DNA from: an uncultured Candidatus Rokubacteria bacterium
GTDB lineage: Bacteria; Methylomirabilota; Methylomirabilia; Rokubacteriales; DASRDR01
Assembly: GCA_963826115.1 (NCBI GenBank)
Contig: CAWGVS010000005.1
Span: 736,001 to 800,000, forward strand
Reading direction: 5' to 3'
DNA: 64,000 bases
The translations under genes and the position numbers were made by a program. Positions 14,416 through 30,774 of the stretch are shown in pieces. The notes under the pieces were generated by a model. It saw only the letters and a program-made list of their open reading frames with translations. It did no database searches and was not told where the DNA came from. Each line of letters starts with the position of its first letter. Position 1 is the stretch's first letter.

Positions 14416-15432
14416 ATGGCGGGCCTGGAGATCCTGTTCCTGTCCAAGGAGGACGTGGACGCCGTCGAGCTCGGGCTCGGTGAGGCGATGGACGCCATCG
14501 AGCTGGGGCTGCGCGCCCACGGCCAGAAGAAGGTGGTGATGCCCTCCAAGGACCACCTCGCCCTCGACCGCTCCGAGCGCCACTGGAACATCCTGAAGGG
14601 CTACGTCGAGCCGATCGACGTCGCCGGCGTGAAGGTGATCGGGGACTTCGAGGGGAACTACCGGTTCGGACTGCCCTCGGAGCTGGCGCTGATCACGCTG
14701 TACCGGTCGGACACCGGGGCGCCGTTCGCCATCGTCGACGGCACGCTCATCACGTGGATGCGCACCGGGGCGGTGACCGCGGTCGGCGCGAAGTACCTCG
14801 CCCCGGACCGGCCGCGTGTCCTCGCGCACGTGGGCGCTCGCGGCACCGCCTGGTACAACGTCCCGATGCTGGACCGGCTGTTCGACTTCGAGGAGATCCG
14901 GGTCACCAGCAAGCGGCCCGAGTCTCGCGAGCGGTTCGCAGCGAAGGTGTCCGGGCAGCTCGGGAAGCCCGTCCGGGTCACGGCGACGGTCGAGGAGACG
15001 GTGCGGGACGCCGACATCATCATCGACGCCTCGCGGCTCGTGACGGCGGAGGTCCTCGTCAAGGACGCGTGGGTCAAACCGGGCGCCCTGATCCAGCCCT
15101 ACGGGGTGGAGCAGTCCGTCGAGTCGTCGCTCCCGCTCTCGGTCGACAAGATGGTCGTCGACGACTGGAACCAGTGCCAGAAGTCGGAGTACGGGCAGTT
15201 CGCCGCGATGATCCGCGCGGGCGCGCTCCGTGGGGAGCACATCTACGGCGAGATCGGGGAGATCGTCGCCGGGCTGAAGCCGGGCCGCGAGTCGCCCCGG
15301 GAGCGCATCCTCTTCTGGCACAAGGGCTTCGCGATCAGCGACATCGTGCTGGCCCACGTGGCCTACGAGAAGGCCCGGGCCAAGGGGATCGGCACGGTCC
15401 TGAGCTACTACCGCCGCCCCCAGGACATGTGA
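14416..15432 (+). CDS. Ornithine cyclodeaminase / mu-crystallin family protein
   Basis: GVKVIG, ITWMRTGAVTAVGAKYLA, EIGEIVAGLKPGR and GFAISD motifs. Confidence 0.9.
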   Translation: MAGLEILFLSKEDVDAVELGLGEAMDAIELGLRAHGQKKVVMPSKDHLALDRSERHWNILKGYVEPIDVAGVKVIGDFEGNYRFGLPSELALITLYRSDTGAPFAIVDGTLITWMRTGAVTAVGAKYLAPDRPRVLAHVGARGTAWYNVPMLDRLFDFEEIRVTSKRPESRERFAAKVSGQLGKPVRVTATVEETVRDADIIIDASRLVTAEVLVKDAWVKPGALIQPYGVEQSVESSLPLSVDKMVVDDWNQCQKSEYGQFAAMIRAGALRGEHIYGEIGEIVAGLKPGRESPRERILFWHKGFAISDIVLAHVAYEKARAKGIGTVLSYYRRPQDM

Positions 15433-15790
15433 GGGGCCGGGGCGGCCGGCGGTCGCGGGCAGCCCGGCCGGGCTGACGCGACGATGCGCGCCGTGCGTCA
15501 GCCGAGCTAGCCTGCGGATCGCGTGACGGCTCGAGCTGCGGGCCCGGTCGAGGAACGGTCGTGCCCTCCTGATGCCACCCGCGCCGGGCCGCATCCGCCT
15601 CTACGCGCGTGACTACAAGTGCGCCCCGATTGCCGCGAAGGCGCGCTTCCTCGCGGCCGGGCTTGCCGTGCTGGCCTGCAGTCTCTCTACGCGCCGTGCG
15701 CTCGCGCGCTGACCGGCCACGGCGAGACGCTGACGGTCGCCTGCCGACCGACGCCGTCGTGAGCGGCTCGCGCTCGCCCGCTCCTCGGGA

Positions 15791-15799
15791 TGCTAGAAT
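15791..15799 (+). promoter_or_regulatory. Extended -10 promoter for tRNA-Arg
   Basis: TGCTAGAAT about 28 nt upstream of the tRNA. Confidence 0.5.
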
Positions 15800-15827
15800 C
15801 AAGGCCGACCGTCCCGCGAATCCGCGT

Positions 15828-15904
15828 GCCCCCGTAGCTCAGTTGGATAGAGCAAGGGTTTCCTAAACCCTGGGCCGGGTGTTCGATTCACCCCGGGGGC
15901 ACCA
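15828..15904 (+). tRNA. tRNA-Arg(CCT); integration site
   Basis: Acceptor GCCCCCG/CGGGGGC; anticodon arm AGGGT-TTCCTAA-ACCCT; GTTCGATTC; ACCA end. Confidence 0.96.
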
Positions 15905-17555
15905 ACTCCGCTACAGCACCCTCGAGCAGCGGGTCCACCGTCACCGTCCCGGTGATTTCGTAGCAGCGACCCTCCGGGGTCTCCCGTGGCGTCAGCGTCA
16001 ACCGGCCCGGCAACAGGCGCCGCAGAATGGGTCGGGCCTCGCTGGGCTCACCGCGCAGCAAGGTGGCCCACTCAGCCAACACCGCGCGCACCATCGCCTT
16101 CAGGGCCGGGGTGACCGTGGGCCGGGTTGACCGACGTCGCGCCTCGACGTTCTGTAGCTGGGCCGCCAGGGTGGCCCGGTGCTGCTCCTGCTCGCGCATC
16201 TTCTCCATCAGGCGCGCCGGGGGCTTGCCATCGGCGATGGCCGACACGAAGTTGTCGAGGATCCGGTCCACTCGCTTCATGTCGCGCTCCAGACGCTGGC
16301 ACTGGGCGTCGAGCGTGGCGTACTGCGCCGCGGCCTCCGCCACGGCCTGCGCCAGCACGTCCTCCAGCAAGGTGGTCGTCAGCACCTCCTCGTCCAACAC
16401 CGCCAGCATCGCCGCGTCCAGGTCGGGCAGGGGCAGGGACCAGCCGTTCGTACAGGTGCCATCGACGCGCCAGCCGTTGCAGACGTAGTAGACGCGCGGG
16501 GTGCCGCGTCGGCTCGTCCGCTTGATTGCATGCATCGCCCCGCCACACGTTCCACAGCGGACCAGGCCTCCGAACAGGTGGCGCGACTCCAGCGCCGGGT
16601 CGGGGCGCGCCCCCGTCTCCCGATGATTGCCGACGCCCCCGGTGTACGTCTGCCGGGTGCGTGCCAGGCGAGCATGGGCGGCGGTCCACAGGGTCTCGGG
16701 GATGATCCGGCACTCGGGCACCTTGACGTCGATCCAGTCGTCGGCAGGGACGGCTTCCTTGACCTTGGTGCCGCCGCGGTCCACCCAGCGTGTCTTGCCG
16801 TAGATCGACCGGCCTCGGTACAGGTCGCGGAAGGCCATCTCCCACAGGCACGTCTTCGCCCACCCTCGGCCCGGTCGTGGCCCCGGCACCCCCTCGGCAT
16901 TGAGCCCGCGGGCGATGCGCGCGTAGCCGCGGCCCTGGGCGATCTCCGTGAACACGCGGGTGACCACGGCGGCCTGGGTCGGGTCGATCACCCGCACCAC
17001 ATGGCCCTCGCGCCGCACGTTGGTGTACCCGTAGACCTTGCCGCCGGCCACGTGGCCGGCGCGTGCCTTGCCCCGCCCGACATCGCGCGCACGCTGCTGG
17101 TCCTGCTGTCGGTGCATCTCATCCACCATCGCCATCGTGGACACTAGGTACCGGTCCAGGAGGGTGTCGCGCTTCACCTCGCTGTCGGTGAGGTAGCAGT
17201 AGATGCGCACCCCGGCGTCGGTGATGCGTTTGAGCGCCACGGGGACCTCCTCCAGCGAGCGTCCCAGCCGGCTTTGCTCCATGGTGACCACCACCTGGAA
17301 TGAGGGCCGGGGTTTCAGGGCGTTCATCAGCCGCAGGAACCCTGGCCGCTTCACGAACTCGGCCCCGCTGATGCCGTCGTCGATGTACACGTGCGCGGGG
17401 TCCACCGTCCAGCCCTTGCGTGTCGCGTAGGCGGTGGCGTGCTCGACCTGGCGGGTGACGCTCTTGGCCTCGTCGGCCACCCCGCCTTGCTCGGTGCTCT
17501 TGCGAGCGTAGATGGCTGCGGTCAGGTGGGGGGGTGCTACACTGGGCCTGCTCAT
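15888..17555 (-). CDS. Large serine recombinase (integrase), 555 aa in integrated state
   Basis: IYARKST catalytic Ser, YIDDGISG, SRLGR, recombinase domain, Zn ribbon CGTCG...YYVC...C, coiled coil; SD GGAGGAGG; stop codon lies inside the tRNA. Confidence 0.95.
   Translation of the reverse strand: MSRPSVAPPHLTAAIYARKSTEQGGVADEAKSVTRQVEHATAYATRKGWTVDPAHVYIDDGISGAEFVKRPGFLRLMNALKPRPSFQVVVTMEQSRLGRSLEEVPVALKRITDAGVRIYCYLTDSEVKRDTLLDRYLVSTMAMVDEMHRQQDQQRARDVGRGKARAGHVAGGKVYGYTNVRREGHVVRVIDPTQAAVVTRVFTEIAQGRGYARIARGLNAEGVPGPRPGRGWAKTCLWEMAFRDLYRGRSIYGKTRWVDRGGTKVKEAVPADDWIDVKVPECRIIPETLWTAAHARLARTRQTYTGGVGNHRETGARPDPALESRHLFGGLVRCGTCGGAMHAIKRTSRRGTPRVYYVCNGWRVDGTCTNGWSLPLPDLDAAMLAVLDEEVLTTTLLEDVLAQAVAEAAAQYATLDAQCQRLERDMKRVDRILDNFVSAIADGKPPARLMEKMREQEQHRATLAAQLQNVEARRRSTRPTVTPALKAMVRAVLAEWATLLRGEPSEARPILRRLLPGRLTLTPRETPEGRCYEITGTVTVDPLLEGAVAELVPPG
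15893..15905 (+). repeat. attL core (tRNA 3' end)
   Basis: 13-bp identity with 24494-24506. Confidence 0.85.
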
Positions 17556-17663
17556 CACGGTCCTCCTCCAAAGGTCGGGCTTGATGGGCCAGCGCCCGGC
17601 GGTGTGCACCGCGCGGGCGCTACCTATTTACGGTCACGCAGCATACACGACCGTCCTGCCAGG

Positions 17664-19046
17664 CTACGCTCTCTTCGCCGACGCCCTCGGCCCCGGCCCC
17701 TCCGTGCGTGCCATGGTCGCGACGGGGGCGGGGATACCCGAGATCAACGCGAACCACGTCTCCCGCGAGACGACCACATCGGCGCGCAGCACGGCCCGAA
17801 TCCACAGTTGGTAGGCCGCGAATGCGCTACCGCTGCTGTCGGCCGCGTCCCGACTGATGGTCAGTTCCAGGGCCAGCCGCAGGCAGATGAACAGGTTCGC
17901 GAACGGCCCGAGGTAGGCTTCGCTTTCGTTTGTCCCGGCGCCGCCGGTGGCACTCACCTGCGTGGTGACGAACTTCTGGAGCCGGCCCCAAGACTCCGGG
18001 GGCCGCAGCGGCTGCTGGGTGCTGTCCTTCAGGCGATCCAGCGCCCCGGCATCCCGCGGGTGCAGAATCAACGACACGCCCTCCGCCGGCCCGTTGGCCG
18101 CCAGGATTCCTTCGTAGGCTTCGCTGATCGTGTCGTAGGTCAGCGCGCCGCCGGCCGGCATCGCGATGATGCCAGGCGTGAACTTGATGCCGCGCGGCTG
18201 GTCCTGGCCGGCGGCGGAGGGATCGCCCCGAAGGGCCGCGAGGTCGAGGCCGTTCGCGAGTTCCTCGCCGAAGACCTGCTCGATGACCGGCGGCGCGCTG
18301 GGCGAGCTGTCCCGGGCCAGCTCTTCGCTCATCTTCACCCAAATCATCTGCGTCCGCGCCTTCGCGGACACGCGATCCAGCACCACGTCGGTCGCCGGGG
18401 CGGCGACATTCTCCGGCTTCCAGAGCGGCGGCCCGGCCGACACGACTCGGGCGAAGTGTAGTTCCTGCGTGTCCATCGGAATCGTGCGAGCCCCGGCCCG
18501 AAAGACGGTACTGGCGGCGCGCGCGCGGTCCAACACATCGAGGGCTATCGCCTCCGGGACGAGATAGCCGCCACTGGCGCCGGGGCTGGTGGCCATCACG
18601 CGCTGTTCGGCCTGGGCGTCGCGCCAGTCCCCGGTGATGATCGCCCGCAGGGCGCGACCGAACGAGAGGTCGCCCGGCCGGATACCATCCGGCAACCGCA
18701 CCGGCACGTGGCTGCGCAGCGACTCGGATGGCGTCAGCGCCAGCACAGACCCTCGGTCGCTGATCGCCGCGTCCTCCTGCCGGCGAGCGGCCCGGGTCGG
18801 CAGCGGCTCGCTCAGTTCGCGCTCCACCGCGTCGAGGTTCTCGCGGCCGGCGATGTACGACCGCCGCGGGGCGTGGTCGGGGTCGAGGGCGGCGATCTGC
18901 TCGGCCGCGCGGCCCTGCACCAAGTCGAGGCGATCCCACTCGGCCGACTCCGTGTCGGTCATCGCGCGGCCCTCGGTGCTGGCCACCAGGGCGCGCATGG
19001 ACTGGACGATTTCTCCCCGCTTCTGCCGTAATTCCGTGAGGGTCAT
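17664..19046 (-). CDS. HK97-family major capsid protein
   Basis: Delta-domain-like N-terminus (MTLTELRQKR...AEWDRL), GGYLVPE, SEELARDS, LDLAALRGD..QPRGI, LDRLKDSTQQPL. Confidence 0.9.
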   Translation of the reverse strand: MTLTELRQKRGEIVQSMRALVASTEGRAMTDTESAEWDRLDLVQGRAAEQIAALDPDHAPRRSYIAGRENLDAVERELSEPLPTRAARRQEDAAISDRGSVLALTPSESLRSHVPVRLPDGIRPGDLSFGRALRAIITGDWRDAQAEQRVMATSPGASGGYLVPEAIALDVLDRARAASTVFRAGARTIPMDTQELHFARVVSAGPPLWKPENVAAPATDVVLDRVSAKARTQMIWVKMSEELARDSSPSAPPVIEQVFGEELANGLDLAALRGDPSAAGQDQPRGIKFTPGIIAMPAGGALTYDTISEAYEGILAANGPAEGVSLILHPRDAGALDRLKDSTQQPLRPPESWGRLQKFVTTQVSATGGAGTNESEAYLGPFANLFICLRLALELTISRDAADSSGSAFAAYQLWIRAVLRADVVVSRETWFALISGIPAPVATMARTEGPGPRASAKRA

Positions 19047-19323
19047 CGGGCACGCTCCCCTACTGCGGGCCTCGGGAGCGGGTGGGAGGGCGTGGCGGAG
19101 GCCCAATCGTGGCCACGCGTCCACCCGCCCCCGAAGCACGCATGCTCGGACGGTGATGGTCGCGCGCCTGATCGCCTGAGCCACAGCCGGCGGGCCAGCG
19201 CAGCGCCGGTCGCGCCCGGTGCCCCACAGGGCCGCGCGCGCCGGTGGCCGGTTCAGTTGTGGGCGCATCATATGGCAGAGCGGGGCTGAGAAGGCAAATC
19301 CCCCTGGTGATACCCTGGTGCCC

Positions 19324-20082
19324 GTGTCTCCGCGGGTCGAAGTCCTTCCCATCCGCCTGATGCTGCCGGGAGCCTTGCCCGAGAGCGACGTTCGCACGGT
19401 CCCGCTCCTGCGGCTCATGGCGGCCACGAACGACACCCGCCTGATGGAGCGGCTGTTCTTGGTGACCCGCCGGCCCGAGAATCACATCGAGAGGCTCGTA
19501 TGCCTCGCAGAGGCGGGCTACTACGGTCGCATGTTCCTGGCGCACCTCTACGAAAGCGGAGAGGCGCTCGGAGCCTTGGACCATGTGGCCCACGCCTGGG
19601 TGACGAACACCGCCGCCAGCTCGGCTGAAGCCCAGGCGGCACTGACCAGCTTGCGGGAGGCCTTTGCGGGTGAACCCACGGCGGGCTTCTACGGGTTCTT
19701 GGCGTGGATGCGCACGAAGGCCGCGTTCCACTACAAGGACGCCTCGTTCCGGGACGCACTGAAGACCACCGGGAGGCAATCGGGCCACGTCATCCTCGGT
19801 AGGTATGCCGGAGCGAGTCGGTACATCGTCGTGGACGTCCTGATGGATGAGGTCCTCAAGAAGGCGGGGAAGGAGATGATGGTGGACTACGACGCGGCCC
19901 TTGGTCGCGCGGTCGAACTGGGGAACGCCCTGGAGCGGCTCGTCGCCCATCTCCTCACCCACTACCTGCAGGAGCGCCCTGCCACGTGGCGCGAGGAACC
20001 GTGGGAGACGGTGCACTGGCCCGCAGCCCTGAGGAAGCGGACGAAACAAAGCGAGACAGACGAAGGGCCGCCGGCATGCTAG
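19324..20082 (+). CDS. Hypothetical helical protein with HEPN-like R-x5-H motif (start uncertain)
   Basis: WMRTKAAFHY motif; the only gene on the opposite strand within the element. Confidence 0.55.
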   Translation: MSPRVEVLPIRLMLPGALPESDVRTVPLLRLMAATNDTRLMERLFLVTRRPENHIERLVCLAEAGYYGRMFLAHLYESGEALGALDHVAHAWVTNTAASSAEAQAALTSLREAFAGEPTAGFYGFLAWMRTKAAFHYKDASFRDALKTTGRQSGHVILGRYAGASRYIVVDVLMDEVLKKAGKEMMVDYDAALGRAVELGNALERLVAHLLTHYLQERPATWREEPWETVHWPAALRKRTKQSETDEGPPAC

Positions 20083-20456
20083 GCCTGGCCCTCCTGATTC
20101 GTTTCGGCCGCCGCGGTGATCTCGGCCCAGGGCACCGCGAGTAGTTCCGTCAGTTGCACGTCCCGGCCTTCGGCATCCACGGGAAACAGCATGACCCGGT
20201 CGAATCCCAGCAGTCCCGCACAGGCGGCATTGAAGCGCGTGGACTCCTGGAAGAAGCGCCGGATGGTGGCCCAGCGTTCCCGTTCCGCGTCATCCGTGGC
20301 CCGCCGCTCGTTGAGCCAGTGCCGCGCATCCCGGTCGAATCCGTAGGCCAGCGCCCCCAGCACGTTCAGCGGCTGGCCCTGCAGCAGCCGCACCGTCTGC
20401 AGGTGGGCCAAGGCCACCGCGGTGCCGGGTGTCATCGGTCCGGGGTCGGTTGTCAT
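20079..20456 (-). CDS. Hypothetical protein
   Basis: ATGA overlap with terS stop; 125 aa of protein-like composition. Confidence 0.65.
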   Translation of the reverse strand: MTTDPGPMTPGTAVALAHLQTVRLLQGQPLNVLGALAYGFDRDARHWLNERRATDDAERERWATIRRFFQESTRFNAACAGLLGFDRVMLFPVDAEGRDVQLTELLAVPWAEITAAAETNQEGQA

Positions 20457-20926
20457 GGGCGGCCCCCCTCCTGCGCCCGCAGCAGTGACTCCATGGCGTC
20501 CGGCGGGGCCGCGGGCGTTAACGGTTCCACCGTGCCGCGGGCTGCCGGTGCCAGCCCCAGCGCGCGCAATGCGAGCAGACAACGGCGCCACGCATCGGCC
20601 ATCAGCGCGCACTCGGGCCGTACCCGGATGAGTCCGTTGTGGGCGTACGACTCTCCGTGCTCACGGAGGAACGCGCGGTGCCGATCGAAGTCGGCCCGTG
20701 CACTGGCCGCCAGCAGGATCGCGGCGCCGTCTCCCCGCGTGGCGAGCCGCTGCGCGTCCATCTCGGCCGCCAGGGCGTCGTAGTGGGCGCGCACGTCAGC
20801 ATCGAGCCCCAGCGGGGCCGGCGGCGCTCCCACGTCCGCGGGTTTCATCTCCAGCGCCGGCCGCTCGCGGTCGGGGCGCAGCGTGCCGCGGCGGGCCTTC
20901 GATTCACGGCGACGGCGAGGAGGCAT
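20453..20926 (-). CDS. Phage terminase small subunit, P27 family
   Basis: RGTLRPDR, PPAPLGLD and RPECALMADAWRRCLLALRALGLAPAAR match the P27-type TerS pattern. Confidence 0.88.
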   Translation of the reverse strand: MPPRRRRESKARRGTLRPDRERPALEMKPADVGAPPAPLGLDADVRAHYDALAAEMDAQRLATRGDGAAILLAASARADFDRHRAFLREHGESYAHNGLIRVRPECALMADAWRRCLLALRALGLAPAARGTVEPLTPAAPPDAMESLLRAQEGGRP

Positions 20927-21153
20927 CAGTCAGACCACCGGGTGCCCAGGAATCTCGGCGCGCGTGGCCATCGGACCGTCGTGCCTGCGCAGGCGGGTAG
21001 GGACCACTCAGGCGCTAGCTTTTTGCCCCGCCCTCCCCCGCGCGAATCCGACGCACAGGCCACAAGGTGGCCCGCCGTCCCCACGCCCAGCCCTTGGCCT
21101 ATGTGCACGTAGCTCCCCCCTCCACCCCCGTGGGGCTCAGGGCAACGTCGGGG

Positions 21154-21390
21154 TCATGCATGGAGCGGGCAGGCGCACCGCGCGGGGTGCGGGGGCATCG
21201 GAGCCGTCGGGCAGTTCCCGCAATCGCAGCCCGCCCGGTGGGGCTGGTTGAGCCGCAGGAGTCGCATCCCGAACACGCGCTTCCGCATCCGGCGAAACCG
21301 CGGCGGGGGCTTCTGCTCTTTCTGTGCGGCTGCGACGGCGCGGTAGGCGTCCTTCGGGGTGGTGCTGTCGTCGTTCGTCCTGTCCGTCAT
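21154..21390 (-). CDS. Small protein with Cys/His-rich C-terminus
   Basis: SD GGAGG before ATG; HRAGCDCGNC...HPARCACPLH. Confidence 0.5.
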   Translation of the reverse strand: MTDRTNDDSTTPKDAYRAVAAAQKEQKPPPRFRRMRKRVFGMRLLRLNQPHRAGCDCGNCPTAPMPPHPARCACPLHA

Positions 21391-21473
21391 GGTCGTGTCC
21401 TCCCTGCTGTTGGTGTGGGGCTGGGGCGCTCCATCAAAGAGGCCGATCTCCAGGTCGCTCCATCGCCGGCCCA

Positions 21474-21755
21474 TCATCGAAGCTCCTGCAGGTCGGGCGT
21501 GCGTGCTCGGTGCCGCCAGCGGTGCAGCAGCTTGCGCACGTTGGGCGGCACCGCGTACTCGGTCAGAGCCGCGCGCTCCAGCAACCCCGGCCAGTCCCGC
21601 GTGCGCACCTGCACCAGCACCACGTCGGTGGTGCCGATGCCGACGATGTCCCACTCGCCCAACGAGGCCGCACTGCGCGTGCAGCGGTAACCCGCGGCTT
21701 CCAGCAGGGCCATGGAGCGGTGCTCGTTCCGGGTGCCCTTCCGCTTCGCGTTCAC
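21474..21755 (-). CDS. Hjc-like PD-(D/E)XK nuclease (Holliday junction resolvase-like)
   Basis: KRKGTRNE...LEAAGY...RSAASLGEWDIV...LVQVR resembles the archaeal Hjc pattern; GTGA overlap with upstream frame. Confidence 0.7.
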   Translation of the reverse strand: MNAKRKGTRNEHRSMALLEAAGYRCTRSAASLGEWDIVGIGTTDVVLVQVRTRDWPGLLERAALTEYAVPPNVRKLLHRWRHRARTPDLQELR

Positions 21756-22283
21756 TCCAGGGGCTCCAACGACGACGGCCGCTGCGGCAGGCGGGCACCG
21801 AGACGACGCGGGCCGGGGTCGGCGGCCGGTGCCGGCGGGGGTGAGGGCACGCTCGGCTGCGGGGCCGGCGCCAGGGCGCTCGCCCGGTGCAGAAACTCCG
21901 GGGGCAGGCCGCCCAGCCGGCGCAGCGCCTGGGTGTACACGGCCTGCACGACGGCCTCTTGCTGCTGGAGCCACTGAAGCTCCCGGCGGAACGGAGCCAG
22001 CCGATGGTCGCGGGTGCGGGCCGTCGTGGCCGTCGCGAGCGCCGTGCAGCCGGCTGACGACGGTCTCCGTGCAGCGTGGGCAGGCCAACGCGGTGCTCTG
22101 GTCCTCCGTGTTGAAGACTGCGAACGTGACGAGGAAGTGATCGAGCAGGACCCCACACCAGGCGCAGCGGGTCAGTCGGGGCACGAACCACGACAGACGG
22201 TCAATCGGTGGCGGCACCGGTCGCCGGCGGCGCGGCTTGCCCTTCTTCGTCGGCTGGGTCATGTCGTCGGGCTGGCCGCTCAT
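21752..22283 (-). CDS. Hypothetical Zn-finger protein, possibly frameshifted or two genes
   Basis: CAWC...CPRC in the frame starting at 22283; a second frame (RRELQWLQQQEAVV...LEPLE*) ends at the Hjc start. Confidence 0.4.
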
Positions 22284-23266
22284 GCGGCCTCCGCCCCGAC
22301 GTTGCCCGCGCCCCAGCCATACCGAACCAGATCGCCCCAGCGGCGCGGTCGGCCCGTCACGCTGGGGTCGTCGTCGGGGTCGGCCACCTCCAGGTCGTCT
22401 CCTGGTGGCGGGGCCGGTGCCTGCGCCCCGCCGTCGTCGCCGGTCGGGTGATCGTCGTTCTCGGTGTGCATCCGTGCCTCCGGTTCTCGCCCGTAGGTTG
22501 CGCAGCGCGCCAGCGTGGCCATGAATCCATCGTCGCGGTCCAGGATCGGTCCGATCCGCTCCGGTCCGGTTTCGATCCGGCCCCTTGAGGCTGAAAGCCC
22601 ATCCGAACCCCCCCGTGCGTCGGGGGGGTAGGGGGGGTTCTTTCGAACCCTTTCTGTCGGAGTCTGAGAAGAAGTCGGCGGGACCATCGGCGCTCGCGTG
22701 TCTGGGACCATCGGCGCTCGCGCAACACCCGGCGCGGAATCGGTAGACCTGGAGCGGCGATTCCTGGGCGATACCATCGGCGCTCGCGGGTCGTCTACCA
22801 TCGGCGCTACCATCGGCGCTGACCCCCCTAGCATCGGCGCTCCGCTGGGCTGCACCATCGGCGCTGGCGCCAGGCCGTCACTCCGTGATGGCACGTCTTC
22901 GTGCGGGGTTGCGGTGCCACGGACCATCGGCGGTGACGCGCCGTGTACCATCGGCGCTTCCAGGCCCATGGCCCCCGGCAGGATGCGGATGGTGGTGAAG
23001 CCGGCGCTGCCCTCGTCGGGGTACCGCACAGCCTCCGTGGCGATCCAGCCGCGGGTCCGCAAGGTCTGAAGGAACCGACTCACGGCACGCGGGCTCCACC
23101 CCCAGCGCCGGGCGAGTTCGACCTGGGACGTGTCGAGCACCAGCGCGCCTGTGTGCCAGTGTGCGGAGAGCAACAGGTACAGCCAGGCGTCCAGGCGGTT
23201 GATGCGTCCCGTTGGCCAGAGCGGATCATCCAGGAGCGAACGCGGCAGCTTCACCCAGCCGGTCAT
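22280..23266 (-). CDS. Phage-type replication initiator (wHTH) with internal iterons
   Basis: MTGWVKLPRSLL...DAWLYLLLSA...SQVELARRWGWS..VSRFLQTL...GWI replisome-organizer-like N-terminus; repeated APMV peptide. Confidence 0.75.
   Translation of the reverse strand: MTGWVKLPRSLLDDPLWPTGRINRLDAWLYLLLSAHWHTGALVLDTSQVELARRWGWSPRAVSRFLQTLRTRGWIATEAVRYPDEGSAGFTTIRILPGAMGLEAPMVHGASPPMVRGTATPHEDVPSRSDGLAPAPMVQPSGAPMLGGSAPMVAPMVDDPRAPMVSPRNRRSRSTDSAPGVARAPMVPDTRAPMVPPTSSQTPTERVRKNPPYPPDARGGSDGLSASRGRIETGPERIGPILDRDDGFMATLARCATYGREPEARMHTENDDHPTGDDGGAQAPAPPPGDDLEVADPDDDPSVTGRPRRWGDLVRYGWGAGNVGAEAA
22683..22958 (+). repeat. Iteron-like array, 9 x ACCATCGGCGCT (putative origin)
   Basis: Copies at 22683, 22707, 22773, 22797, 22809, 22830*, 22854, 22923* and 22947 (* = one mismatch). 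Confidence 0.8.
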
Positions 23267-23469
23267 TCCCTCGTCTCCGGCCGAGTGCCCGGCTGGTCCG
23301 ACTCCGCGGCCAGCCGACGCTCGGCCTCGCGCAGGATCATCCTCGCCAGCAGGCCCACCAGGTCCTCGTACTCGACCGACCCGCGGGTCGGCACGCGGAA
23401 GAGCCGTGCACCGGCGACCGGCCGCGCCTGGTGGATCACGCGGGCGGGGCGGGGGCGCGCTGTCCTCAT
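23263..23469 (-). CDS. Small hypothetical protein (68 aa)
   Basis: ATGA overlaps with both the XRE gene and the rep gene. Confidence 0.55.
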   Translation of the reverse strand: MRTARPRPARVIHQARPVAGARLFRVPTRGSVEYEDLVGLLARMILREAERRLAAESDQPGTRPETRE

Positions 23470-23687
23470 GGCTGGCCGTTGCGGGCGAGAGGCGGGTCGA
23501 ACAGGTTGCCCAGCGGGACGCGGAGGGAGCGAGCAAGGCGCACCTTGGTCTGCCAGGACGGCACGGACAGACCTCGTTCCGCGCGCGAGATGGTGCCGAT
23601 GTCGAGGCCGGTCAGGTGGGAGAGGTCGCGCAGCGTGAGGCCACGCTCCTTCCGCCAGCGCCGCAGAGGATGCGGGTGCGCGCCCAT
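23466..23687 (-). CDS. XRE/Cro-like HTH regulator
   Basis: LRRWRKERGLTLRDLSHLTGLDIGTISRAERG. Confidence 0.88.
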   Translation of the reverse strand: MGAHPHPLRRWRKERGLTLRDLSHLTGLDIGTISRAERGLSVPSWQTKVRLARSLRVPLGNLFDPPLARNGQP

Positions 23688-23920
23688 GGGTCCACCACGC
23701 GGTCACAAGGTGGCTGGCGAGCGCGAAGCGGCACCGCCATGGTGCTGAACCGCTCGCCGGACCGGCACCCGCTCGTTGTGTGGGCGCGCGCGCAGGTGCT
23801 CGCTGAGAGCACCGCCGATCCGCGATGTGGGTGGGGACGCGGGGTGGTGCTCTCAGCCGTATCATCTACACCGGCCCCATGGGCAGCGCAACAAAAAAAC
23901 GCTTGGCTCGGGTCGCCGCG

Positions 23921-23995
23921 TCAGGCGGCGCGACGAAGGGTGACGATTGTCCGGATCGGCCAGGCGTAGCGCGGGCCGGACCCCGCCGGGGGCAC
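23921..23995 (-). repeat. Internal att / integrase C-terminal tail module, copy 1
   Basis: Reads VPPAGSGPRYAWPIRTIVTLRRAA* on minus strand; core CCGGGGGCAC at 23986-23995. Confidence 0.85.
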
Positions 23996-24045
23996 ACCCT
24001 TACACCTGGTGCGCGGTGCTATCCAGAATTCGCGCGGGCGCCCGC

Positions 24046-24372
24046 TTACTTGAGCATGCGAATCATCAACGCGACGACTAGTAGACTGGAGATCGGAACG
24101 GTCAGGACCAACCAGGTTAGGACATGGAGTTGCCGGCGAAGTCTCAGCAGGGCAGTGTCACCGCGAAGGATCTCCGCCGATCGCTGCCGATAGAAGAAGA
24201 ACAGCTGTTCCGGATGGCGTATCCCCCAAAAGGCCTCGGGCATCACCTTCTCTGCAACGTTGGGGTACCGTCGCATGAACTGAAGCTGCAATCGGGCGCC
24301 CACGATGCCCATTGCAAGGAAGAGGATCCCGTTGCCGAGGAACAGAAGCACACCTACCAGCGGGCTGACCAC
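24046..24372 (-). CDS. Small two-TM membrane protein (cassette cargo)
   Basis: 108 aa with hydrophobic helices at both ends; lower GC than its flanks. Confidence 0.7.
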   Translation of the reverse strand: MVSPLVGVLLFLGNGILFLAMGIVGARLQLQFMRRYPNVAEKVMPEAFWGIRHPEQLFFFYRQRSAEILRGDTALLRLRRQLHVLTWLVLTVPISSLLVVALMIRMLK

Positions 24373-24428
24373 GACCCCACCCCCGCGCGACTCCTCAGGT
24401 TTGTGTCGGCGGCCGCTATTCTACGCTC

Positions 24429-24506
24429 CTACGCTGCGCGCCGGAGCGCGACGAGTCGCCGGATCGGTCGCGAGTAGCGTGGGCCGGACCCCGCCGGGGG
24501 CACCAA
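24429..24506 (-). repeat. attR with integrase C-terminal tail module, copy 2
   Basis: Reads LVPPAGSGPRYSRPIRRLVALRRAA* on minus strand; core at 24494-24506. Confidence 0.88.
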
Positions 24507-24548
24507 TTAATCAAGTAGTTACGCGACACCATTTCTGAGACGAGCCGG

Positions 24549-24572
24549 TTTTGTGGCGATTTTTGTGGCGAT
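24549..24572 (+). repeat. Perfect tandem 12-bp repeat TTTTGTGGCGAT x2
   Basis: Seen directly, about 43 bp beyond attR. Confidence 0.7.
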
Positions 24573-24761
24573 CTTGAGTCGGAGGTCCTGAGACGGCCCC
24601 CAACATCCCAGGCGGCGGAAGGAACCGTTATCATCCCAGTCGTGGGCTAGGCGTCGGCTACCTACCGACGTTTAACGAGCAGAATCCTCGCCGCCCTGCC
24701 CGCGGAATGTCCCCCGAGGCGTTCCACCCGAGGAGAAGCGACACGTAGAGGAGGGCGATCA

Positions 24762-25187
24762 ATGCCGGCGAATCCGCTCATCGGGACGTGGCGGCTCGTG
24801 TCGTGGGAGCTGCGGGACGCGGATGGCCGTGTCACGTACCCCTGGGGTCGCGATCCAGTAGGGTTCATCACGTATACCGTGGACGGGCGCATGGCTGTGC
24901 AGTTTGGGCGTTCGGACCGCGCTCAGCTCTCCGTTGCCGATTGGCTGGCCGCATCTGACGCGGAGATCGTGGCGGCGGCCCGGGGCTACTTCGCATACTG
25001 CGGCACCTACGAGTGCCGAGACGACACGGTCGTGCACCGGCTGGACCTCTGCCTGATGCCCAACTGGATCGGCGGAGAGCAGGTGCGCCAGGTCGCGTTG
25101 AAGGGGGACACCGTCACTCTCTTCACGCCGCCCACCCAGCTCGGCGGCCAGCAACGGGCCAGCAGCCTCGTCTGGCGGCGAGTGTGA
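24762..25187 (+). CDS. Lipocalin-like domain protein
   Basis: LIGTWRLVSW, GFITYTVDGRM, YFAYCGTY, PNWIGGEQVR and LVWRR. Confidence 0.85.
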   Translation: MPANPLIGTWRLVSWELRDADGRVTYPWGRDPVGFITYTVDGRMAVQFGRSDRAQLSVADWLAASDAEIVAAARGYFAYCGTYECRDDTVVHRLDLCLMPNWIGGEQVRQVALKGDTVTLFTPPTQLGGQQRASSLVWRRV

Positions 25188-25221
25188 AGCCAACCCCGTA
25201 AGCGACAGGCTCGTGGGCTAG

Positions 25222-25252
25222 TGAACCGCCCCGGGAAACCCGGGGCGGTTCA
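25222..25252. mobile_element. Abutted IS3-family-like terminal inverted repeats without transposase
   Basis: TGAACCGCCCCGGG-AAA-CCCGGGGCGGTTCA, a perfect 14-bp IR like IS629/IS6110-type ends. Confidence 0.6.
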
Positions 25253-25416
25253 GTCGCACGGTGCGAGCTTGGGCGCTTCCGTTCTTCGCTACGCGTCCTG
25301 GCCATCGCTTTTCAAGGCCATGAAAGTGTGGGAGGGGTTATGTACCATCTGAACGACTCGACCCACACGGAGGTCGATCCAAGCGCGGCAGTTCAATGCT
25401 CACCAGGAGGCGGGAC

Positions 25417-25914
25417 GTGACAACACACACCGCGGAGAACCCCGGCGAGGCGCAAGCCAAGCGTCTTGAGCATGTCTACGAGGAGGTGGCCAAGCTGCTG
25501 CGAGACCCCAAGGTGGCCTCGCGTCTGCGCACGGCGCCGGGTGAAAATGAGTGGTCAGCGATGCAGACGCTGGGACACATGACGGAGCTGATCCCGTACT
25601 GGTTGCATCACTGTCGCGCCCTGATCGCCGCGACGGGAGCCCCGCCCACGTTCGGACGCACGCCCGGCTCGCCTGAGCGACTCGCTGGGGTCGCGTACGG
25701 GGCTGCCGCTCAACCCGACGTGCTGTTGTCCCAGCTAGAGAAGGAAGTTCGGGCAGCAGCCGGCACGATCCGGAACCTGTCCACAGCCGAGCGCGGTAAG
25801 CGGGGTATTGACCACGAGAGGGGCGAGGTGACCGTCGCCGACGTCCTCGAGAGGTTCATTGTCAGCCACGCCGAAGGGCACTTGGCACAGGCACAGGCCG
25901 CGCTTCGGGGTTAG
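25417..25914 (+). CDS. DinB-family protein
   Basis: SD AGGAGG; EWSAMQTLGHM and HAEGHLAQ metal-binding His pattern. Confidence 0.8.
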   Translation: MTTHTAENPGEAQAKRLEHVYEEVAKLLRDPKVASRLRTAPGENEWSAMQTLGHMTELIPYWLHHCRALIAATGAPPTFGRTPGSPERLAGVAYGAAAQPDVLLSQLEKEVRAAAGTIRNLSTAERGKRGIDHERGEVTVADVLERFIVSHAEGHLAQAQAALRG

Positions 25915-30762: not shown

Positions 30763-30774
30763 CCGGGGGCACCA
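30763..30774 (+). repeat. Further copy of the tRNA-Arg 3' end (possible attR of an older island)
   Basis: Exact CCGGGGGCACCA in the same orientation, intergenic. Confidence 0.55.

Follow-up and report, generated by a model that had tools for sequence, protein, structure and literature searches.

A serine integrase gene that crosses its own attachment site in a tRNA-Arg(CCT) island of Candidatus Rokubacteria, and the conserved tail of its attP form

What becomes of an integrase when the site that it recombines lies across the 3' end of its own gene? This question is raised by a 64,000-nucleotide stretch of DNA (hereafter, the window; positions 736,001 to 800,000 of contig CAWGVS010000005.1, assembly GCA_963826115.1) from an uncultured Candidatus Rokubacteria bacterium, in which the 3' end of a tRNA-Arg(CCT) gene is occupied by an 8.6-kb island (15906-24493) that resembles a phage satellite and owes its integration to a large serine recombinase (LSR). 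Coordinates are window positions throughout, and minus-strand genes read from right to left. The original prediction for this locus described a self-editing switch, in which excision swaps the C-terminus of the LSR for a degron-like tail and integration state sets the stability or directionality of the enzyme. The gene split by its attachment site, the exchange of C-termini and a tail conserved across the family, in homologues and in rebuilt attP sites, were borne out; the part that concerns stability and directionality is something we infer. LSR genes whose reading frame runs across the crossover and whose attP form ends in [RK]-[AV]-A recur in a clade that targets tRNA-Arg, -Glu, -Ala and -Ser, and this C-terminal [RK]-[AV]-A is conserved in the attP form only.

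The integration target, tRNA-Arg(CCT), lies on the plus strand at 15828-15904 (ARAGORN; Rfam RF00005, 67 bits), and its 3' end is regenerated by the island. The 13-bp core, CCGGGGGCACCAA, which contains the 3' acceptor stem, the discriminator base and CCA with one further base, was retrieved by a direct-repeat script (L=13) as two identical copies in the same orientation, 8601 bp apart. One copy is found at attL (15893-15905) and the other at attR (24494-24506), where it is a displaced 3' fragment of the tRNA followed by host flank. Dyad symmetry amounts to 12/22 in the rebuilt attP and 10/22 in attB, values that do not exceed background (mean 11.0, 95th percentile 13) and do not place the central dinucleotide. 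The LSR is encoded on the minus strand by the ORF 15888-17609, the sole long minus-strand ORF with LSR domains, in which an ATG at 17555 yields the prophage form (15888-17555) of 555 aa, ending in ...AELVPPG*. The Pfam domains Resolvase (residues 13-167, 1.3e-21), Recombinase (192-299) and Zn_ribbon_recom (327-387) are present, and the protein matches the PHROG 95 integrase family with an E of 5.9e-73. In addition, the conserved Arg R18 and the nucleophile Ser S20 are invariant across 30 aligned homologues, and the coiled coil of the zinc ribbon appears as long helices at 370-508 in an AlphaFold2 (AF2) model of the homologue P0020. The stop codon (15888-15890) falls inside the tRNA gene, to the left of the core and 3 nt beyond it, which confirmed the predicted 555-aa product that ends ...VPPG* in tRNA sequence outside the 13-bp core.

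At the far end of the island lies the P arm of attR (24429-24493, minus strand), from which the LSR takes its final 21 codons and its stop in the rebuilt attP (...RRLVALRRAA*). Minus-strand translation of 24408-24503 reads VPPAGSGPRYSRPIRRLVALRRAA*, with its stop at 24429-24431; three codons of the shared core open this reading, and a 575-aa attP-form protein therefore results wherever in the core the crossover takes place. The frame runs through the core, and the final G is replaced by 21 residues ending in LRRAA, so that both the translation and the rebuilt junction agreed with the in-frame circle-form extension through 24429-24493 that had been proposed, with its 575 aa and its LRRAA* end. 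Integration thus exchanges a tail of about 20 residues for one to a few tRNA-encoded residues. The core repeat is weak when taken alone, and a 21-codon open extension is by itself unremarkable in DNA of about 70% GC with long open stretches in all frames; the case for the arrangement has therefore to be carried by conservation and not by coordinate arithmetic.

Conservation of the attP-form tail

The first evidence of conservation comes from the island itself, which holds a relic copy of the tail-coding P arm together with 10 bp of core (23921-23995, minus strand; repeat D3, by translation and codon analysis). This relic arm reads VPPAGSGPRYAWPIRTIVTLRRAA*, a tail of equal length whose stop is at the matching aligned position, and it is 82% identical to the attR P arm over 71 nt before diverging after 10 bp of core. 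A search of the bacterium's own genome for further copies returned one LSR of this kind, with a P-arm 22-mer at the attR arm and the relic arm only. The two arms differ at 16/75 nt and keep 20/25 residues in the integrase frame, as against 12-17 in the other five frames, and the differences are distributed over third, first and second codon positions as 8:5:1. In the last five codons, all four base changes are synonymous and LRRAA is kept, with gca gcg tag at the end of one arm and gcc gcc tga at the end of the other, so that even the stop differs (tag vs tga); random placement of an equal number of changes keeps LRRAA in 143/20000 trials. The nucleotide similarity of the arms ends at the stop codon.

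Conservation of an attachment arm might also be expected at the DNA level, where a recombinase or accessory site, or a gene on the opposite strand, could preserve the P arm and leave the peptide incidental. The inner ~30 nt beside the core, where the recombinase half-site is expected, are nearly identical in the two arms and would suit this explanation. Beyond the half-site, however, the DNA of the outer arm has diverged and the peptide end has stayed, the other five frames are less conserved or contain stops, and tails across the family share their last residues only and differ in length, which makes a purely DNA-level constraint very improbable. The end of the tail is under selection at the protein level, as is shown by the recurrence of the arrangement and of its [RK]-[AV]-A end throughout the clade.

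The tail was then followed across homologues. A phmmer search against 1.84 billion representatives gave 1048 proteins at E <=1e-30. For loci, 233 sources including the window (relatives' genomes, viral contigs, one-per-species genomes and metagenome contigs) were reduced to 155 distinct ORF 3' ends by the exclusion of 45 without an LSR match of at least 150 bits, 22 with ORFs running off the locus end and 11 duplicates. Nearly half of these ends (76/155) reach up to or into a tRNA gene that lies on the other strand, and none of the 76 ends in AA or VA. The tRNAs abutted are Glu-TTC (44), Ala-CGC (10), Arg-CCT (9), Glu-CTC (6), Ser-GCT (5), Met (1) and Gln (1), and at least five tRNA species, namely Glu-TTC, Glu-CTC, Arg-CCT, Ala-CGC and Ser-GCT, are each the target of several members of the clade (loci L109-L291); the hosts of the clade, by record title, are Rokubacteria/Methylomirabilota, Acidobacteriota, Nitrospirota and others. 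Among the 79 ends without a tRNA, 14 are AA and 7 are VA (P = 1.5e-9 against a base rate of 2.15%; in this genome 301/14929 long ORFs, or 2.0%, end in AA).

The two forms are also distributed unevenly over the sources. Homologues on viral contigs (n=12) comprise 7 with AA, 1 with VA, 2 with a tRNA and 2 others, and those on genome contigs comprise 44 with a tRNA, 3 with AA, 3 with VA and 27 others; such a split would be expected with AA as the mark of the unintegrated form. Full-length proteins (520-660 aa) make up 119 of the 150 best representatives at 50% identity, and of these 18 end in AA, 45 run into tRNA-like sequence and 56 end otherwise. As well, 54 of the 120 closest proteins from a word-indexed search end in [VA][PA]PG like that of the window, with 8 ending in AA and 2 in VA. 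The pattern is repeated in a distant pair, in which one locus (L065) reads ...WLPGTD followed by a tail ending in RRAA and the other (L066) reads ...WLPGTDSNRRLSD, which is tRNA-derived. Among distant LSRs (22-30% identity) on viral contigs, 1/23 ORF ends is AA, and that one is L065; the rarity of this end there indicates that the tail is a feature of this clade and not of all LSRs.

The attP sites of homologous tRNA-targeting LSRs were also rebuilt. Out of 44 tRNA-abutting elements with at least 6 kb of element side, 13 have a direct repeat of the 3' part of the tRNA of at least 13 bp, and from these attP was rebuilt. The in-frame tails end in AA in 9/13 and in VA in 1/13, as against 1 AA in 26 for the two control frames of the same junctions, and the recurrence of in-frame tails that had been proposed as a check was thus borne out. 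The rebuilt tail of a further locus (L183), at which ARAGORN finds no tRNA, also ends in AA.

A set of 40 distinct AA/VA tails was collected, in which A at -1 and A or V at -2 are given by construction of the set. Counts over the last five positions are L 12, R 13, R/K 23, A 30 / V 10 and A 40, giving a family consensus of L-R-[RK]-[AV]-A that LRRAA of the window matches. The tails are alike in their last 2-5 residues only, and length and the remaining DNA or peptide vary.

Chance and base composition would explain the arrangement by a frame that happens to stay open after the core in 70% GC DNA, where Ala-rich ends are common, and it is the case that long ORFs occur in all frames, that Ala makes up 13% of long ORFs and that a 21-codon extension is ordinary. 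Against this stand the AA base rate of 2.0% compared with 9/13 rebuilt tails and 1/26 control frames, the 0/76 integrated forms with an AA end, and the synonymous retention of LRRAA* in the relic arm. Taken together, the synonymous-only change at the end of the relic arm, the tails of homologues and the rebuilt attP sites indicate that the arrangement is not an accident of GC-rich sequence, and we consider the chance explanation extremely improbable.

A putative degron and the points that weigh against it

A C-terminal Ala-Ala-COOH is a known protease signal, and the tail may act as a flexible ssrA-like degron for ClpXP or a comparable protease. In the host, tmRNA encodes the tag ADTQLALAA, which ends in LALAA, and clpX lies beside clpP in the genome. 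The terminal Ala-Ala is present in the window tail, which ends in RRAA, and flexibility is suggested by low model confidence (pLDDT) in P0020, a free-form homologue of 565 aa modelled with AF2 from a 34-sequence alignment. The mean pLDDT of this model is 83 and the fold ends at about 538; residues 541-552 and 562-565 are below 50, and the last three 10-residue blocks have values of 43, 59 and 45, with a weak strand at 553-561. As in tmRNA/ssrA tags, Ala-Ala or Val-Ala would thus stand on a flexible tail, whereas position -3 is usually Arg or Lys here and not Leu. According to the available part of a C-terminal pentapeptide screen in E. coli, Ala is about 7-fold enriched at the last two positions, ClpXP-dependent ssrA-like tags dominate and the top tag ends in LVA (PMC10862746). 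XXXAA tags have also been described on Rep and Int of integration-dependent mycobacteriophages (PMC8092301, PMC3694055).

The same conservation evidence would equally fit a tail that is selected without being a degron, whose basic-Ala-Ala end tunes the recombinase through autoinhibition, coiled-coil or subunit contacts or directionality-factor binding, so that activity and not stability changes. Positions -3 and -4 are mostly basic, unlike classic ssrA, and the weak strand at 553-561 in the P0020 tail also suits a role of this kind. However, conservation of the last 2-5 residues alone suits a terminal tag better than a docking surface, Ala-Ala-COOH is a signal that proteases are known to read, and the host's own tag ends alike; an effect on activity in place of stability is, in our view, unlikely. 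An LSR gene that crosses its attachment site, with a selected ssrA-like degron tail that integration strips to leave a stable integrase, is probably the best explanation of the whole.

Several observations weigh against this explanation. At the level of the locus, a core-like 12-mer with at most 1 mismatch gives at least 3 matches in 9/100 shuffles, and the working attR could be either 24494-24506 or 23986-23995, which is uncertain, with either yielding an LRRAA end. No joints of the circle junction were present in the contigs of 4 out of 5 sequencing runs, which contain 5-8% of sampled words and are too sparse for rare circles; these contigs are short and match attL (15864-16014) and the relic-arm junction (23958-24108) exactly. 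An empty attB was also sought, and the right flank (24494-25400) had no full match in 40 relatives. In the survey, the samples of proteins and of loci have members in common and related sequences do not count as independent, 58/79 ends without a tRNA are neither AA nor VA, some being frameshifted or inserted elsewhere, and 3/13 rebuilt tails end otherwise, L110 in TA; the misfits L039 and L048 seem to come from pairing with a second tRNA-like copy. With respect to the tag itself, position -3 of the 40 tails is R in 18, K in 5, I in 5 and A in 4 (R in the window) and does not match the Leu of ssrA, and the E. coli screen, as far as its available text goes, shows a depletion of Arg from the last two residues and a consensus with Leu at -3, with nothing found there on Arg at -3 (PMC10862746). 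Lastly, a simple picture of free versus integrated forms does not explain why some attP-form genes are located on large chromosomal contigs. On one contig of 428 kb, two such genes that abut no tRNA (L122 and L125, with the ends RRVA and RRAA) are separated by about 12.8 kb; a tandem array, nesting in another element or a binning artefact are possible origins.

Some of these points bear on this copy more than on the family. The mechanism could be real family-wide and the present island a fixed, inactive remnant with no switch in this genome, as might be suggested by the lack of circle joints in the contigs of the 4 runs and of an empty site in the 40 relatives, by the past decay visible in the relic att arm (23921-23995) and by the failure of Pfam and PHROG searches of the island ORFs to identify a directionality factor. 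On the other side, the LSR ORF is intact with its three domains, the core copies are identical, the genes for capsid, terminase, replication and regulation have open reading frames, and runs that contain 5-8% of sampled words could not reveal rare circles. We hold a dead remnant to be somewhat unlikely.

The island and its flanks

In addition to the LSR gene, the island carries a set of phage-related genes, all on the minus strand. An HK97-type major capsid protein (MCP) gene (17664-19058) is supported by Pfam Phage_capsid (2.6e-22) and PHROG 10 (major head protein), and a small terminase subunit (TerS) gene (20453-20926) by Pfam Terminase_4 (3.5e-10) and PHROG 83. A winged-helix (wHTH), DnaD-like replication initiator candidate (22280-23536) matches PHROG 186/391 and helix-turn-helix (HTH) families, and an XRE-type HTH regulator (23466-23687; Pfam HTH_31 and HTH_3) is not crossed by the att site. 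Iteron-like repeats are found at 22675-22958 inside the DnaD-like/wHTH gene, with 5-6 direct repeats ending in ACCATCGGCGCT (repeat families D1 and D2); they translate to recurring APMV motifs and resemble an origin embedded in an initiator gene. In the nine island ORFs scanned with Pfam and PHROG, the LSR is the sole recombinase; four ORFs have no family, and the scan detected no genes for a portal, protease, large terminase or tail. With LSR, XRE, DnaD-like, MCP and TerS genes in 8.6 kb, the island looks, by its gene content, like a phage satellite of the kind termed PICI-like. A scan of 15000-25500 with Rfam returned no family besides the tRNA.

A distance of 508 bp separates the relic arm from the right end of the island, and the segment between is lower in GC (63%) and holds a 108-aa hydrophobic ORF. 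This ORF (24046-24372, minus strand; ORF call) is placed between both P arms, has two hydrophobic stretches by eye and has no match in Pfam or PHROG. Together, the relic arm and the lower-GC segment point to a related element at this tRNA, present either earlier or in tandem.

The left flank and the tRNA are conserved in 13/14 members of the genus, and the sequence after the tRNA differs in each. In relatives within the genus, 45-49-nt copies of the 3' part of tRNA-Arg(CCT) occur several kb and about 20 kb downstream (G014:C10:334248-353892; G010:C32:14169-19873). The tRNA-Arg(CCT) gene has thus been a hotspot of repeated integration, and elements with longer cores probably use it too. In the window, a third exact copy of the tRNA 3' 12-mer CCGGGGGCACCA is present in the same orientation at 30763-30774, 6.2 kb to the right of attR; the sequence on its left is unlike the P arm of the LSR, and no early stop occurs in the frame at that place. 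Lipocalin-like, DinB-family and asparaginase genes lie between attR and 30763, with no mobile genes found among them, and the copy may be due to chance, in view of the shuffles with at least 3 matches noted above (9/100).

A motif of about 70 nt at 24634-24704 (GGGCTAGGCGTCGGC...ACCGACG...AACG), upstream of the lipocalin-like gene, is 73-81% conserved in one relative (G008), whose copies (L007:1501-1571; L014:1501-1599) lie about 290 bp behind truncated tRNA-Arg-like copies. The motif matches no Rfam family and could be a regulatory element.

Known systems and the meaning of the exchange

Integration-dependent loss of a C-terminal tag has a precedent in BPs-type phages, for which, in the parts of the reports available, attP lies in coding sequence as it does here, the viral form carries a C-terminal XXXAA tag and a stop near attL truncates the integrated form (PMC3694055, PMC8092301). 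According to the same portions, Int of these phages is also protease-tagged, and the split gene is the repressor, with the tyrosine integrase keeping its own tag (PMC3694055, PMC8092301), whereas here it is the LSR itself that is split. In comparison with BPs-type phages, no link to immunity is evident here, and two defining features, a split repressor and a tyrosine integrase, are absent. In Mx8 (IntP/IntX) and SSV-type elements, the integrase ORF spans attP as here (PMC4383910). Integration alters (Mx8) or splits (SSV) the integrase. Both differ from the present case in that their enzymes are tyrosine recombinases. The Mx8 details reportedly go back to Tojo et al. 1996, and we know of no description of a conserved degron-like terminus for the integrases of Mx8 or SSV.

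Serine integrases of the phiC31, Bxb1 and A118 type share with the present LSR the same three domains, short identity cores and a presumed directionality factor for excision. In these integrases attP is generally located outside the int ORF, with attB in protein-coding genes. In the accessible portion of one paper, Int-S sites are described with 5-8 bp cores inside ORFs (PMC8092301). Small tRNA islands with an integrase, a replication module and MCP and/or terS are likewise known from PICI-like satellites and tycheposons, and in the available part of the tycheposon preprint 910/937 elements use tyrosine recombinases and the rest LSRs, with no mention in that part of an integrase ORF crossing attP (10.1101/2020.12.28.424599). 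The accessible text of two LSR discovery papers also has no mention, by term search, of an int ORF crossing attP (PMC10083194, PMC12884075). A search of the full-text literature, with subscription papers and supplements outside its scope, found no serine integrase gene crossing attP and no loss of a tag by integration, and the earlier impression that no report exists for LSR satellites was left standing within that scope. The principle is thus known, from BPs repressors and from the att-crossing integrase of Mx8, and we judge the serine-integrase case to be one for which no prior description was found.

If the tail is a degron, integrase made from a free, circular or virion-delivered element would be short-lived and protease-sensitive, and integration would carry the tag away to the opposite end of the island, leaving a stable integrase behind. 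An LSR alone integrates and cannot excise, and a stable prophage-form integrase would therefore be harmless and ready once a directionality factor appears. Moreover, a tagged episomal form might make integration dependent on the protease state of the host, and excision would restore the tag and so might limit re-integration. On a wider scale, we tentatively put forward the possibility that the tRNA-targeting LSR clade, in Methylomirabilota/Rokubacteria, Acidobacteriota, Nitrospirota and their phages, adds and strips its own degron by recombination, as a protein-stability memory of integration state that would aid commitment and directionality without extra regulators.

The survey documents a large LSR clade at tRNA genes, with 76/155 ends abutting a tRNA, as against a survey of 2015 according to which, in the part available, tRNA genes were not among the known targets of serine-family integrases (PMC4383910). 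LSR catalogues compiled from integrated prophages record the C-terminus of the prophage form and not that of the integrating enzyme; the natural integrating enzyme of this clade carries an extra tail, which may make it less stable in bacteria. Should the tail work as a degron, site-specific recombination would here rewrite the half-life of its own enzyme, which would be an economical coupling of integration state to integrase dosage and would extend the BPs principle from the repressors of tyrosine-integrase phages to serine integrases.

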